Source of the DNA: Escherichia coli | GTDB taxonomy: Bacteria; Pseudomonadota; Gammaproteobacteria; Enterobacterales; Enterobacteriaceae | Length of the DNA: 64,000 nt | Assembly: GCF_003334315.1 (NCBI RefSeq) | Contig: NZ_QOWR01000005.1 | Strand: one strand, 5' to 3' | Shown here: one piece after another, positions 29,058 through 46,011 of the stretch | Position numbering within the stretch: the stretch's first letter is position 1 | Layout of the letters: each line of letters starts with the position of its first letter | Translations under genes and position numbers: made by a program | The notes under the pieces: model-generated | The model's database searches: none | What the model saw: the letters and a program-made list of their open reading frames with translations, nothing else | What the model was told of the DNA's origin: nothing

Positions 29058-30185
29058 TCAGGCGACGAGCTGTTCCATGATACGTTGATACATACGGGCA
29101 AGTAGCTGCAGGTCGGCAGCGTTCACACATTCATTAATTTTATGAATAGTGGCATTGACCGGCCCGAGTTCCACCACCTGCGCCCCCATGCGGGCAATAA
29201 AGCGCCCGTCGGACGTTCCGCCTGTGGTCAGTAGCTGCGGTTTAATTTCATTATAGTGCTCAACCGCGTTAACGACCGCATCCACCAGTTTACCGCGCGC
29301 GGTCAAAAATGGCTGCCCGGAAAGCCACCAATCCACCGTATAGCGCAGTTGATGTTTTTCAAGCAGGGCAAGCACCTGCGCTTTGATCATCTCATCAGTC
29401 AGTTCGGTGCTGAAGCGGAAGTTAAACTGCACAAACAGTTCACCCGGAATAACGTTGTTACTGCCCGTTCCCGCCTGAATATTGGCAATCTGCATACTGG
29501 TCGCCGGGAAGAATTCATTGCCCTGATCCCACTCAATAGCCACTAATTCATTAAGGAAAGGTGCTGCGCGATGTACCGGATTGTCAGCCAGATGTGGGTA
29601 GGCAACATGCCCCTGAACGCCATGAATGGTAAGGTTGCAGGTTAATGATCCGCGACGACCATTTTTCACCACATCACCTACCACTTCGATACTCGACGGT
29701 TCGCCAACCAGGCAGTAATCGAGACGCTCATTACGTGCCATTAACGCTTCGACGACTTTTACCGTACCGTTGTGGGCACTGGCTTCTTCATCAGAGGTGA
29801 TCAGAAATGCCAGTCGCCCCGTATGGTTGGGATGTTGTGCGACAAAACGTTCTGCCGCCACCACCATCGCCGCCAGCGAGCCTTTCATATCTGCCGCACC
29901 GCGCCCGAATAACATGCCGTCACGAATGGTGGGTTCAAACGGGGGATTGATCCAACGATCGGCGTCGCCAGGCGGCACCACGTCGGTATGCCCGGCAAAG
30001 GCTAACGTTTCACCCTGCCCACGCCATGCCCAAAAATTCTGCGTATCGGCAAAGTCCATGCGTTCAACGGTAAAACCGATCGCCTGCAAACGTTCAATCA
30101 ACAAAGCCTGGCATCCTGCATCATCAGGACTCAGGGAAGGGCGGCGAATAAGCTGTTGTGTCAGCTCAATAACCGGGCACGACAT
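29058..30185 (-). CDS. dapE: succinyl-diaminopimelate desuccinylase (M20 peptidase)
   Basis: 375-codon [59 protein letters not shown]... Confidence 0.97.
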
Positions 30186-30188
30186 AGA

Positions 30189-30563
<375 letters not shown>

Positions 30564-30920
30564 TTATGAGAATAAATACTCATTTAAGGGTGAAAACATT
30601 TTGCCTGCAAATGATTATCAGGAAATATAACATTATCGAAGTATTCAAATTAACAACTATTAAATAATATTAAACATTTTTAACGTAAACATTAAGAATA
30701 TTCATCTTGTTATCTGTCTGTATTTTAACCAGAATTAAATCAGTATTAGATGCCGTATGAATATCTCGAAATGTTGCTGTGTATCACATACAAATCATCA
30801 CCGCAGGACCATAGTATTTACATAAGATTTGTCCCCCGGAGGTAGTCATCGCAGCAATCGAGTAAATTAGCTTCACCACGGTATATTGTTTCCGTAGAAT
30901 ACCCATAATTAGAGGTTGTT

Positions 30921-30980
30921 ATGATTGAACGTGAACTGGGGAACTGGAAAGACTTTATCGAAGTTATGCTTCGTAAGTAA
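30921..30980 (+). CDS. ypfM: 19-residue small protein YpfM
   Basis: ATG 30921 with SD agagg 5 nt upstream; MIERELGNWKDFIEVMLRK-stop; matches the small protein YpfM as I recall it, and sits between yffB and acrD as in K-12. Confidence 0.8.
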   Translation: MIERELGNWKDFIEVMLRK

Positions 30981-31040
30981 TTCCTGAGACAAAGTACAAA
31001 CAGCAAGAACCCGCTGAGCAGGTTCTTAATCGGAAAGTTG

Positions 31041-31074
31041 AAAAAGGCGACACATTGGCATGTCGCCTTTTTTA
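31041..31074. terminator. bidirectional intrinsic terminator (ypfM / acrD)
   Basis: A5-ggcgaca-cattggca-tgtcgcc-T6: GC-rich hairpin flanked by A-run and T-run, ending 5 nt before the acrD stop. Confidence 0.8.
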
Positions 31075-31078
31075 TTGC

Positions 31079-34000
31079 TTATTCCGGGCGCGGCTTCAGC
31101 GGGAAGCGGCGGCGCACCAGCACAAAGAACAGCGGCACGAAGTAAATAGCCAGAATAGTGGCCGAAATCATCCCGCCCATTACGCCAGTACCCACCGCAT
31201 GCTGACCACCGGAACCGGCACCCGTGCTGGTTGCCATTGGCAATACGCCGAAGATAAATGCCAGCGAGGTCATCAGAATCGGGCGTAAACGCTGACGGCA
31301 GGCGTGGAGCGTCGCTTCAAACAGGTCGTGGCCTTTTTGGTTCATCTCGTTAGCAAACTCGACGATCAGGATGGCGTTTTTCGCCGATAAACCAATGACC
31401 GTTAACAGGCCCACCTGGAAGTAAACGTCGTTTTCCAGCCCGCGCATCCAGGTTGCCAGCAGCGCGCCGATTACCCCCAGCGGCACGACCAGCATTACCG
31501 AGAACGGCACCGACCAGCTTTCATACAACGCAGCCAGACACAGGAATACCACCAGCAAGGAAATGGCGTACAGCGCCGGAGCCTGCGCGCCGGAAAGCCG
31601 CTCCTGATACGACATCGCCGTCCACTCCAGACCAAAGCCGTTTGGCAGCTGCTTCACTAACGATTCCATAATATCCATCGCCGTACCGGTACTGACCCCC
31701 GGTGCGGCTTCCCCAACAATCTCAACCGCAGAATAACCGTTATAGCGTTCCAGACGCGGCGAGCCTGTTTCCCAGCGTGAGGTCGCGAAAGCAGAGAAGG
31801 GCACCATGCCGCCATCTTTATTTCGGACATACCAGAGATTGATGTCATCTGGCAGCATGCGATACGGCGCAGCTGCCTGCACATAGACTTTCTTCACGCG
31901 ACCGCGATCCATAAAGTCATTCACATAGCTCGAACCCCAGGCGGTTTGCAGTGTGTCGTTAATATCGTCGATAGCAACGCCCAGCGCCTGAGCTTTACGC
32001 TGGTCGATATCAATCTGCAACTGCGGACTGTCGTCGAGGCCGTTATGGCGCACACGGGTTAGCTCCGGGTTTTCCGCCGCCAGCGCCAGCAACTGATTAC
32101 GTGCTGCCATCAGCGCATCGTGACCCGCTCCAGCGTGGTCCTGCAACTCCATATCAAAACCCGCAGAACTACCAAGACCGCTAATTGCTGGCGGGCTGCT
32201 GGCGATAACGCGAGCTTCTTTAATCTTGTTAAACGCCTTCGTTGCACGCTCGATAATGGCAAATGAGGTGCCGGTCTTACTGTCGCGTTCGCTCCAGTCT
32301 TTCAGGCGGATAAACATTCGCGCCACGTTTTGCCCGTTGCCCCCAGGGCCAGAGCCAACGGTGGCAAACACCGACATGATGTTGTCTTTTTCATGGGTGA
32401 AGTAATATTTCTCGATTTGCTCAACGACTTTCAGGGTCTGTTGTTGGGTTGAACCGCTGGGCAATTGTACCGAGGTAGTAAACATGCCCCGGTCTTCCAG
32501 CGGTAAGAACGACGTCGGCAAACGCAGGAACAGGAACACCATGCCGCCAAGCAGCAGGACATAAATCACAATCCAGCGCAGGCTACGGTGGAGAATTTTC
32601 GCCACCCCTTTTTCGTAGCGTTCGGCGTTGCGGTTAAACATCTGGTTAAACCAGGCAAAAAAGCCTTTTTGCCCATGATGCTCACCTTTTTTCAGTGGCT
32701 TAAGTAGCGTGGCACACAGAGCCGGAGTGAGGATCATCGCTACCAGTACTGACAGCACCATCGCCGCAACAATGGTAATAGAGAACTGGCGATAGATGGC
32801 ACCGGTGGTGCCGCCGAAGAAGGCCATTGGTACAAATACCGCCGAAAGCACCATCGCAATCCCGACCAGTGCCCCCTGGATCTGCCCCATCGATTTACGT
32901 GTGGCTTCGCGAGGAGTGAGTCCTTCCTCACTCATAATACGTTCGACGTTTTCTACCACCACGATGGCATCATCCACCAGCAGACCGATCGCCAGCACCA
33001 TCGCGAACATGGTTAAGGTGTTGACGCTGTAACCGAAGGCGTAAAGTACGGAGAAGGTTCCCATCAACACCACCGGCACGGCGATAGTGGGTATCAGCGT
33101 GGCGCGGAAGTTTTGCAGGAACAGATACATAACGAGGAAAACCAGAGCGATAGCTTCCAGCAGCGTTTTCACCACGTCTTCAATGGAGGCTTTAACAAAC
33201 GAGGTGGTTTCATACGCCACCTTGTATTCCAGTCCATGCGGGAAATACTGCGCCAGCTCGTCGAGACGATTGAGCACCAGCTCCGCTGTCGCCATTTCGT
33301 TTGCGCCGGAGGCCAGTTTTACCCCCAGCCCGGAGGCTGGCTTACCATTGAAGCGGCTAAGATAATCGTATTTCTCCGCCCCCATTTCGACGGTGGCGAC
33401 ATCGCCCAGCCTTACCTCTGAGCCGTCTTGATTCACCCTCAAGGTGATATCGCGGAACTGTTCTGGTGTTTGCAGCAGTGACTGGGCGTTAATGGTGGCG
33501 TTGAGCGCCTGCTTATCGACGGAAGGTGTACCACCAAGTTGCCCAACCGCAATCTGCGCGTTCTGTGACTCAATGGCATCAGTGACATCTTTAGCTGTCA
33601 TCTGGAAACTGTTGAGTTTCGCCGGGTCCAGCCAGATACGCATGGAATATTGCGAACCATAGGCATCAATATCCCCGACGCCATTTACGCGGCTTAACGG
33701 GTCCTGAATATTACTGGCAACATAATCAGCAATATCCTGTTTATCCATCGAACCATCGGTAGAGACGAAGGCAATGGTCAGAATGTTGGTATCGCCGGTT
33801 TTACGCACCGTCACGCCCTGATTTTGCACCGCCTGCGGTAACTTTCGCATGGCTGATTGCAGCTGGTTTTGTACTTGCTGCACGGCTTCGTCCGGATCGG
33901 TGCCTGCTTTAAAACTTAAAGTGACAGATGCCTGACCGGTGCCACTGCTCTGAGATGACATATACATGAGATTATCGAGGCCGGTCATATTTTGCTCGAT

Positions 34001-34192
34001 AACCTGGGTCACGGTGTTTTCCAGCGTCTGGGCCGATGCGCCGGGATAGTTAGCGGTCACTCGCACATTCGGTGGCGCGAGATCGGGGTATTGTTCAACG
34101 GGCAATGAAAAAATCGCCAGGGTACCTGTCAGACACAACAGGATTGCCAGCACCCAGGCAAAAATGGGGCGATCAATAAAGAAATTCGCCAT
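31079..34192 (-). CDS. acrD: RND-family aminoglycoside/multidrug efflux pump, inner-membrane component
   Basis: 1037-codon [59 protein letters not shown]... Confidence 0.97.
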
Positions 34193-43438: not shown

Positions 43439-45718
43439 ATGGATGACCAGTTAAAACAAAGTGCACTTGATTTCCATGAATTTCCAGTTCCAGGGAAAAT
43501 CCAGGTTTCTCCAACCAAGCCTCTGGCAACGCAGCGCGATCTGGCGCTGGCCTACTCACCAGGCGTTGCCGCACCTTGTCTTGAAATCGAAAAAGACCCG
43601 TTAAAAGCCTACAAATATACCGCGCGCGGTAACCTGGTGGCGGTGATCTCTAACGGTACGGCGGTGCTGGGGTTAGGCAACATTGGCGCGCTGGCAGGCA
43701 AACCGGTGATGGAAGGCAAGGGCGTTCTGTTTAAGAAATTTGCCGGGATTGATGTATTTGACATTGAAGTTGACGAACTCGACCCGGACAAATTTATTGA
43801 AGTCGTCGCTGCGCTCGAACCGACCTTCGGCGGAATCAACCTCGAAGACATTAAAGCGCCAGAATGTTTCTATATTGAACAGAAACTGCGCGAGCGGATG
43901 AATATTCCGGTATTCCACGACGATCAGCACGGCACGGCAATTATCAGCACAGCCGCCATCCTCAACGGCTTGCGCGTGGTGGAGAAAAACATCTCTGACG
44001 TGCGGATGGTGGTTTCCGGCGCGGGCGCCGCAGCAATCGCCTGTATGAACCTGCTGGTAGCGCTGGGTCTGCAAAAACATAACATCGTGGTTTGCGATTC
44101 AAAAGGCGTTATCTATCAGGGCCGTGAGCCAAACATGGCGGAAACCAAAGCCGCATATGCGGTGGTGGATGACGGCAAACGAACCCTCGATGATGTGATT
44201 GAAGGCGCGGATATTTTCCTCGGCTGTTCCGGCCCGAAAGTGCTGACCCAGGAAATGGTGAAGAAAATGGCTCGTGCGCCAATGATCCTGGCGCTGGCGA
44301 ACCCGGAACCGGAAATTCTGCCGCCGCTGGCGAAAGAAGTGCGTCCGGATGCCATCATCTGTACCGGCCGTTCCGACTACCCGAACCAGGTGAACAACGT
44401 CCTTTGCTTCCCGTTCATCTTCCGTGGCGCGCTGGACGTTGGCGCAACCGCCATCAACGAAGAGATGAAACTGGCGGCGGTACGCGCGATTGCAGAACTG
44501 GCCCATGCGGAACAGAGCGAAGTGGTGGCTTCAGCGTATGGCGATCAGGATCTGAGCTTTGGTCCGGAATACATCATTCCAAAACCGTTTGATCCGCGCT
44601 TGATCGTTAAGATCGCTCCTGCGGTCGCGAAAGCGGCGATGGAGTCGGGCGTGGCGACGCGTCCGATTGCTGATTTCGACGTCTACATCGACAAGCTGAC
44701 TGAGTTCGTTTACAAAACCAACCTGTTTATGAAGCCGATTTTCTCCCAGGCTCGCAAAGCGCCGAAGCGCGTAGTTCTGCCGGAAGGGGAAGAGGCGCGC
44801 GTTCTGCATGCCACTCAGGAACTGGTAACGCTGGGACTGGCGAAACCGATCCTTATCGGTCGTCCGAACGTGATCGAAATGCGCATTCAGAAACTGGGCT
44901 TGCAGATCAAAGCGGGCGTTGATTTTGAGATCGTCAATAACGAATCCGATCCGCGCTTTAAAGAGTACTGGACCGAATACTTCCAGATCATGAAGCGTCG
45001 TGGTGTCACTCAGGAACAGGCGCAGCGTGCGCTGATCAGTAACCCGACAGTGATCGGCGCGATCATGGTTCAGCGTGGGGAAGCCGATGCAATGATCTGC
45101 GGTACGGTGGGCGATTATCATGAACATTTTAGCGTGGTGAAAAATGTCTTTGGTTATCGCGATGGCGTTCACACCGCAGGTGCAATGAACGCGCTGCTGC
45201 TGCCGAGTGGTAACACCTTTATTGCCGATACCTACGTCAATGACGAACCAGACGCAGAAGAGCTGGCGGAGATCACCTTGATGGCGGCAGAAACTGTCCG
45301 TCGTTTCGGTATTGAACCGCGCGTTGCTCTGTTGTCGCACTCCAACTTTGGTTCTTCTGACTGCCCGTCGTCGAGCAAAATGCGTCAGGCGCTGGAGCTG
45401 GTCAGGGAACGTGCGCCAGAACTGATGATTGATGGTGAAATGCACGGCGATGCAGCGCTGGTGGAAGCGATTCGCAACGACCGTATGCCGGACAGCCCTT
45501 TGAAAGGTTCTGCCAATATTCTGGTGATGCCGAACATGGAAGCTGCCCGCATTAGTTACAACTTACTGCGCGTTTCCAGCTCGGAAGGTGTGACTGTCGG
45601 TCCGGTGCTGATGGGCGTGGCGAAACCGGTTCACGTGTTAACGCCGATCGCATCGGTACGTCGTATCGTCAACATGGTAGCGCTGGCCGTGGTTGAAGCG
45701 CAAACCCAACCGCTGTAA
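43439..45718 (+). CDS. maeB: NADP-dependent malic enzyme (malic enzyme fused to PTA-like domain)
   Basis: 759-codon [50 protein letters not shown]... Confidence 0.97.
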
Positions 45719-45736
45719 TTCTTTTTTTAACTCTCA

Positions 45737-45764
45737 CGCTTACCCTGAATATTCAGGGTAAGCG
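45737..45764 (+). terminator. perfect 28-bp palindrome downstream of maeB (probable terminator hairpin, or operator)
   Basis: cgcttaccctgaat|attcagggtaagcg, perfect 14-bp arms, 19 nt after the maeB stop, followed only by gttt. Confidence 0.5.
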
Positions 45765-46011
45765 GTTTAGCTGCAATATATTAGTAAAGCTTATTACTGA
45801 GTTTGCGAATAATAAAAAAAGCAGTATATAAAATATCTCGAGATTATTTTATTTATATTCATGCGTCGCATATGAAAGTTTATTCATAACAGTAAATATC
45901 TCTCCATTCTTAGTGATCTACCTCACCTTTTAAACGCGCTTGCCGAATTTTGTTATTTACTCTGACGAAAAATTGTCACGATACACGAAAGTTTTTCACA
46001 GGCGGCGACTC

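Follow-up and report, generated by a model that had tools for sequence, protein, structure and literature searches.

The strongly AT-rich DNA upstream of yffB is very probably the AT-rich half of a 375-bp divergent regulatory spacer that separates the yffB–dapE–ypfN operon from ypfM. It is thus a textbook case of core-genome promoter DNA that is AT-rich and coated by H-NS, and public data sets already document where transcription begins in it and which proteins occupy it. Because the spacer is itself an entry in a published catalogue of H-NS-marked constitutive divergent promoters (Shimada 2014, PMC3946193), the finding was known before; only details are added here, namely the misfit of the published yffB promoter hexamers, the modular layout of the spacer, and a conserved module (block A/CATAGT) on its ypfM side. 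As a whole, the observations are in all likelihood best explained by three modules. The first (30546–30665) would comprise the yffB 5′ UTR and a promoter without a −35 element that has a strong −10 (GATAAT/TGTTATATT) and a start at 30626. The second (30666–30755) would be an extremely AT-rich, TpA-rich stretch upstream, in which the sequence turns over between genera and the composition is kept. The third (30756–30920) would be the control region of ypfM, conserved in sequence and of approximately 40% GC, which contains block A, the hexamer CATAGT, a variable linker, and the promoter P1.

The window is a 64,000-nt stretch of Escherichia coli DNA in reverse orientation relative to MG1655, and comparison with that strain gives the coordinate relation genome (NC_000913.3) = 2621792 − x for each window position x. 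The coding sequence of yffB, an ArsC/Spx-family putative reductase and the first gene of the yffB–dapE–ypfN operon, occupies 30189–30545 on the minus strand (open reading frame list and MG1655 annotation), with dapE at 29058–30185 on the same strand and ypfN beyond it (MG1655 comparison). The spacer between yffB and ypfM spans 30546–30920 and measures 375 bp here versus 380 bp in K-12. The 19-aa open reading frame of ypfM, MIERELGNWKDFIEVMLRK, lies at 30921–30980 on the plus strand (MG1655 annotation), followed by a shared intrinsic terminator at 31039–31074, recognized in a terminator scan, and by acrD (31079–34192, minus strand). The two genes flanking the spacer are therefore divergent, with yffB on the minus and ypfM on the plus strand according to the open reading frame list and the MG1655 annotation, and the names yffB, dapE, ypfN, and ypfM that had been given from the sequence in the earlier note agree with MG1655. 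The spacer was found in all 5426 complete E. coli genomes, with coverage below 80% in 43 of the 5,426.

The block had been placed at 30590–30860. Its AT bias is real: the sequence quoted for it is present at approximately 30623–30702, and the interval has a GC content of 31.4%, compared with a mean of 53.5% for the window, a value so low that only 0.29% of 271-nt segments reach it. Its placement was not borne out, the true core being located approximately 45–90 bp further left. The lowest-GC 271-nt segment in the 64 kb is 30502–30772 (25.5% GC, z = −6.1) and the lowest-GC 150-nt segment is 30615–30764 (22% GC, z = −5.7), while the right ~95 bp of the interval (30766–30860) are moderately AT-rich, at 38–43% GC. 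With an AT content of 78% in its 150-bp and 74.5% in its 271-bp segment, the DNA falls within the range of H-NS regions (about 70% or more over at least 100–200 bp). The AT-rich core upstream of the yffB promoter (30638–30755; 18–24% GC) consists of UP-like DNA and variable filler and would be the main H-NS platform. Elsewhere in the window, the only other strongly AT-rich stretches are 45714–45984 and 747–896 (26–31% GC), which are the eutS–maeB and upp–purM intergenic promoter spacers; the upp–purM spacer is also HNS-marked (Shimada 2014, PMC3946193).

The description of the block as typical of curved DNA was not supported. In a first-order wedge model, which serves as a relative test within the window only, the wedge-sum maximum of the spacer reaches only the 91st–99th percentile of the window, depending on the length over which it is summed. 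The nine A/T tracts of the spacer are short and not phased, unlike those of a curved promoter. The highest predicted bend in the window is located at 32636–32700 inside acrD, where phased A6/T5/T6 tracts (GGCAAAAAAGCCTTTTTGCC...CCTTTTTTCAG) give this coding stretch a wedge score twice that of the spacer.

The operon start lies in the AT-rich DNA. SMRT-Cappable-seq places the start of b2471|b2472|b4547 (yffB–dapE–ypfN) at NC_000913.3 2591166 (PMC6131387), which corresponds to minus-strand position 30626 of the window and falls within the block. This start is possibly off by a few nucleotides; it is compatible with either of two overlapping −10 hexamers, of which the downstream one agrees with the Salmonella start. 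The −10 region (30624–30637, minus strand) contains GATAAT (30637→30632), which matches the consensus at five of six positions with the start 6 nt downstream, overlapping the extended −10-like TGTTATATT (30632→30624). No −35 element is recognizable, the best candidate upstream of the mapped start matching at only 2 of 6 positions. Escherichia, Salmonella, and Citrobacter share the conserved element AATGTTATATT at the yffB promoter, to which the Salmonella yffB 5′ UTR of 97 nt maps; the Salmonella yffB reporter, which was built from the mapped start, begins at −97, and −97 in S. arizonae is 9 nt downstream of AATGTTATATT. The UP-element consensus NNAAAWWTWTTTTNNNAAANNN (−59 to −38) is matched at 8 of its 14 specified positions relative to 30626, in a region of 90% A/T where chance matches are likely. 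We suggest that the AT-rich DNA at −40 to −60 probably offsets the absent −35 element in part, in an UP-element-like manner, although the 8/14 match is weak. The yffB start is absent from the start-site data of Kim 2012, which are of low depth (PMC3415461).

The published prediction for yffB, TTCATA-16-TTTAAT (Shimada 2014, PMC3946193), corresponds to 30761→30734 in the window and is at odds with the start mapped later: these hexamers do not fit 30626, nor are they conserved in Salmonella. A sigma-70 scan of the spacer returned P1 of ypfM alone and fewer sites than in shuffled sequences; thus, by that scan, the block is not a "promoter island".

Mapped starts are present on both strands of the spacer, at 30626 (minus), 30797 (plus), and 30907 (plus), of which only 30626 and 30797 lie inside 30590–30860. 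The start at 30797, assigned to ypfM, is minor and supported by 2 reads (NC_000913.2 2589017 in the supplement of Kim 2012, PMC3415461). The main ypfM promoter, P1, consists of a −35 hexamer TTCACC (30872–30877), a 17-nt spacer, and a −10 hexamer TAGAAT (30895–30900), with the start at A30907 on the plus strand. It scores 9/12 in a promoter scan, its start lies 7 nt downstream of the −10, and its hexamers are conserved across genera. The start is recorded at NC_000913.2 2588907 with a matching upstream 51-mer (Kim 2012, PMC3415461), and the same hexamers appear in the table of Shimada 2014 (PMC3946193). Starts within the block, whose absence would have spoken against the earlier reading, are hence present on the yffB side (the operon start) and on the other strand (a weak start); the proposal that both divergent promoters reside there stands for yffB, whereas the main promoter of ypfM lies outside that interval, in DNA of approximately 39% GC.

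The occupancy evidence comes from two published approaches. The ypfM<>yffB spacer is listed at 55.80 min as a type-A spacer that carries a genomic SELEX peak of the RpoD holoenzyme together with an H-NS site (Shimada 2014, PMC3946193). In H-NS ChAP-seq of K-12, SE11, and SE15, yffB is scored TRUE/TRUE, i.e., bound by H-NS in vivo, and this call persists once genes with an overlap at the 3′ end alone have been filtered out; for the unit yffB–dapE–ypfN the entry is TRUE and for dapE it is FALSE (Higashi 2016, PMC4720273). The ChAP-seq evidence is a gene-level TRUE/FALSE table that records binding in at least one of the three strains. The nucleoid-protein occupancy anticipated for the block is therefore found for H-NS, on the spacer by genomic SELEX and on yffB by ChAP-seq, while consensus scans for Fis and IHF returned no site in the spacer. 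Reportedly, Lang et al. in 2007 described TCGATAAATT as a 10-bp high-affinity nucleation motif for H-NS. Scored against this motif, the spacer contains two 8/10 matches, where 0.38 would be expected from the density in the window, and none of at least 9/10; the matches are located at 30630–30639, over the yffB −10, and at 30760–30769.

From these data, a mechanism can be proposed for the spacer. Sigma-70 RNA polymerase binds it without helper factors, as published in vitro, and H-NS occupies both the AT-rich DNA and the beginning of yffB, as published in vitro and in vivo. We infer that H-NS filaments over 30550–30760 overlap the yffB promoter; since this platform covers the −10, the start, and the DNA upstream, H-NS most likely damps transcription of yffB–dapE–ypfN.

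Across the Enterobacteriaceae, the gene order acrD–ypfM–yffB–dapE is maintained. In most of 80 enterobacterial loci, the 150–300 nt upstream of yffB have a GC content of approximately 25–33%, in genomes of 50–58% GC, while the identity of the filler (30666–30755) to E. coli is at chance level in distant genera. Since AT-richness is kept while identity is at chance, what is maintained in the AT-rich core, judged from sequence comparison, is composition and not sequence. Some genera carry an extra open reading frame inserted between block A and yffB. In K. pneumoniae, no start-site entry for the spacer locus was found.

This pattern bears on two alternative explanations. The first holds that the spacer is passive, its AT-richness having arisen by mutational drift between two promoters and its H-NS binding being incidental and without regulatory effect. 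Such a reading would accord with a filler that is not conserved in sequence beyond Escherichia, Salmonella, and Citrobacter, with a length between block A and yffB that varies as widely as 205–722 nt, with the faster evolution reported for H-NS-bound regulatory spacers, and with the dispensability of the AT block in strain F374 (see below). However, a GC content of 22–25% lies about 6 SD under the window mean and well under that of other spacers, AT-richness upstream of yffB recurs in many genera despite the turnover of sequence, and the mapped yffB start and its −10 are located within the AT block itself, all of which make a passive spacer improbable. The second alternative is that the block is a remnant of horizontally acquired, xenogeneic DNA silenced by H-NS. 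Low GC together with H-NS binding is the classic signature of such DNA; nevertheless, every one of the 5,426 E. coli genomes has the spacer, it contains no mobile-element features or repeats, and Higashi 2016 (PMC4720273) places yffB in class "x", not horizontally transferred. Throughout the Enterobacteriaceae, the AT-rich DNA upstream of yffB is retained along with the gene order, and the latter effectively refutes this origin, which we consider to be extremely unlikely.

A divergent promoter region coated by H-NS remains the preferred reading also when specific regulators are considered, for which the block might mainly serve as a platform instead of H-NS (Fur, MarA/SoxS/Rob, or CRP-like proteins). 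In Salmonella, a MarA ChIP-seq peak is reported at ypfM<>yffB, and yffB is elevated 2.6-fold in a fur mutant, for which a different site is predicted; the supplement of the MarA study has no entry for the ypfM<>yffB locus. In the window, TTTCCTGATAATCATTTGC (30607–30625), at +2 to +20 of the yffB transcript, holds TGATAATCATT, which agrees perfectly with the core of the Fur box over 11 nt and is a predicted site only, specific to Escherichia. Weak marbox-like matches are present as well, and block A contains a CRP-type half-site. Against a dominant role of these regulators, conservation of the Fur-like box is confined to Escherichia, the marbox matches are close to chance (6 found versus 4.2 expected), as is the rate of CRP matches, and the links to Fur and MarA come from Salmonella only and are compatible with H-NS. 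It is therefore unlikely that specific regulators take the place of H-NS as the main occupants of the block.

An RNA-level or coding function would require the block to be transcribed or translated, whether within a long yffB leader (riboswitch or attenuator) or as an unannotated sRNA or small open reading frame. With the yffB promoter predicted by Shimada, the block would indeed lie within a leader of about 180 nt, and short open reading frames of 22–33 aa are present. However, the mapped operon start leaves a 5′ UTR of only 81 nt (30546–30626, minus strand; 28% GC), which is unstructured, its fold being no better than that of shuffled sequences (z = +0.85). In an Rfam search of 30000–31400 at a permissive threshold, the only matches were the 3′ region of STnc250/ypfM and sequences resembling terminators, with nothing above noise in 30546–30920, and no consensus structure was found, in agreement with the earlier statement that the block contains no recognizable RNA gene. 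There is no conserved open reading frame in the spacer, as the alignments are rich in indels, which excludes one. A hidden element of this kind is accordingly judged very unlikely. As a separate observation, the yffB 5′ UTR contains an imperfect palindrome, TGAGTATTTATTCTCA (30567–30582; −37 to −22), whose core TGAnTATTTATTC, at −37 of yffB, is conserved in Escherichia and Salmonella, being common to E. albertii and Salmonella. SdsR represses yffB post-transcriptionally in Salmonella, and the palindrome may be a candidate site for this sRNA or for a protein.

The operon does not depend on the AT-rich promoter throughout its length. SMRT-Cappable-seq reports a dapE–ypfN start at NC_000913.3 2591560 (window 30232, minus strand; PMC6131387), and Kim 2012 reports a dapE start at NC_000913.2 2589359 (window 30455, minus strand; PMC3415461). 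Both lie inside the yffB coding sequence, so that the essential dapE is not solely dependent on the AT-rich promoter. In strain F374 (NZ_OY754371.1, 1557–2445), an IS1A insertion and the deletion next to it have eliminated the block along with the 5′ half of yffB, while dapE, ypfM, and the 3′-proximal internal dapE start are kept. The loss of the block with retention of dapE indicates that the block is dispensable, consistent with the internal dapE start. Thus, with dapE having starts of its own, the AT-rich promoter can be dispensed with, of which this single natural IS1 deletion is an example.

The remainder of the spacer belongs to ypfM, whose 19-aa peptide is nearly invariant across the Enterobacteriaceae, from Escherichia to Erwinia and Pantoea. 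An alignment of 29 genera and an ungapped analysis of 49 enterobacterial loci delineate two rigid modules here. One is block A, AATRTTGC-N6-TCACA (30770–30788, plus strand, with the TTGC-N6-TCACA part at 30774–30788), together with CATAGT, a conserved −10-like hexamer at 30810–30815 on the plus strand, both of which were recognized by conservation. The TTGC and TCAC of block A are invariant in the 29–49 loci, and the spacing from TCACA to CATAKT takes one of two values, 26 nt (41 loci) or 25 nt (7 loci), in 48 of the 49 loci, which come from approximately 29 genera. The other module is formed by the P1 −35 and −10, the Shine–Dalgarno sequence, and the ATG, with 30–33 nt from −10 to ATG. Between the two, a variable linker of 80–97 nt extends from CATAKT to the P1 −10. 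In the 49 loci, the distance from block A to the ypfM ATG is 140–158 nt and that to yffB is 205–722 nt; the module thus holds its place relative to ypfM and not to yffB. The module concerns the control of ypfM and not the AT block. Within the 64-kb window, there is no second copy of the block A motif.

RNAalifold predicted no base pairs for 30784–30923 across the 29 genera; with no consensus RNA structure, the block A module is taken to be a DNA-level element. Its right half, TCACA(T), is a perfect CRP-type half-site, while block A as a whole departs from the CRP site TGTGA-N6-TCACA by 3 mismatches, all in the distal half. Block A and CATAGT could tentatively be regarded as a second, conditionally activated promoter of ypfM, a candidate put forward from conservation and spacing that would respond to a CRP/FNR-family or another dimeric regulator. 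If true, this second promoter would provide the first handle on when the 19-aa YpfM is made, and the ypfM control region offers a very conserved module that is cheap to test. A further candidate is a reading of block A toward yffB as GTGAYn-16-RATATT, which is possible. Readings of block A as an ordinary promoter of sigma-70 or sigma-54 type, in both directions, were rejected, there being no consistent −35/−10 or GG/GC pair.

In the ypfM 5′ UTR, at approximately 30912, five nucleotides (TCTTA in K-12 orientation) are missing in comparison with MG1655 and all relatives. The deletion lies between the start at 30907 and the Shine–Dalgarno sequence and leaves a UTR of 14 instead of 19 nt. It is present in none of the 5,426 complete E. 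coli genomes, the best matches all having a 4- or 5-nt gap, and either a mutation particular to this strain or an error in the assembly may account for it.

Among known systems, the transcript adjoining the spacer on its right is STnc250, the small Hfq-associated ypfM mRNA (Sittka 2008). The 3′ part of the small ypfM mRNA, at 30960–31079 on the plus strand, matches this Rfam family (RF01409) with 37.5 bits and E = 2.4e-5, below the gathering score of 42. This RNA lies outside the AT block, scores below the gathering score, and is an mRNA for a 19-aa protein. The block A module may in turn be compared with class II CRP/FNR-type promoters, in which the dimer is centred at −41.5: the dyad TG-N8-CA of block A is centred 29.5 bp before the first base of CATAGT, 48 of 49 loci share the rigid spacing, and the proximal half TCACAT is perfect. 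In contrast to that class, the distal ATTGC agrees with TGTGA at only 2 of 5 positions, yet it is invariant, and the nearest mapped start is 30797 where a position of approximately 30822 is predicted.

For the AT-rich half of the spacer, the negative regulatory element of proU offers one comparison. Both are AT- and TpA-rich and overlap a promoter and the start of a coding sequence; furthermore, the yffB spacer has two 8/10 matches to the nucleation motif, one of them over the −10, and binding in ChAP-seq reaches into yffB. It differs from proU-type nucleation in that it contains no perfect motif and lies in core-genome and not in acquired DNA, and in that repression is here a proposed effect. 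The closest counterparts are the type-A H-NS-bound divergent spacers of Shimada 2014, such as upp<>purM and stpA<>alaE, from which the yffB–ypfM spacer shows no categorical difference and with which it shares the divergent arrangement, RpoD binding without added factors, an H-NS site, and the extreme AT content.
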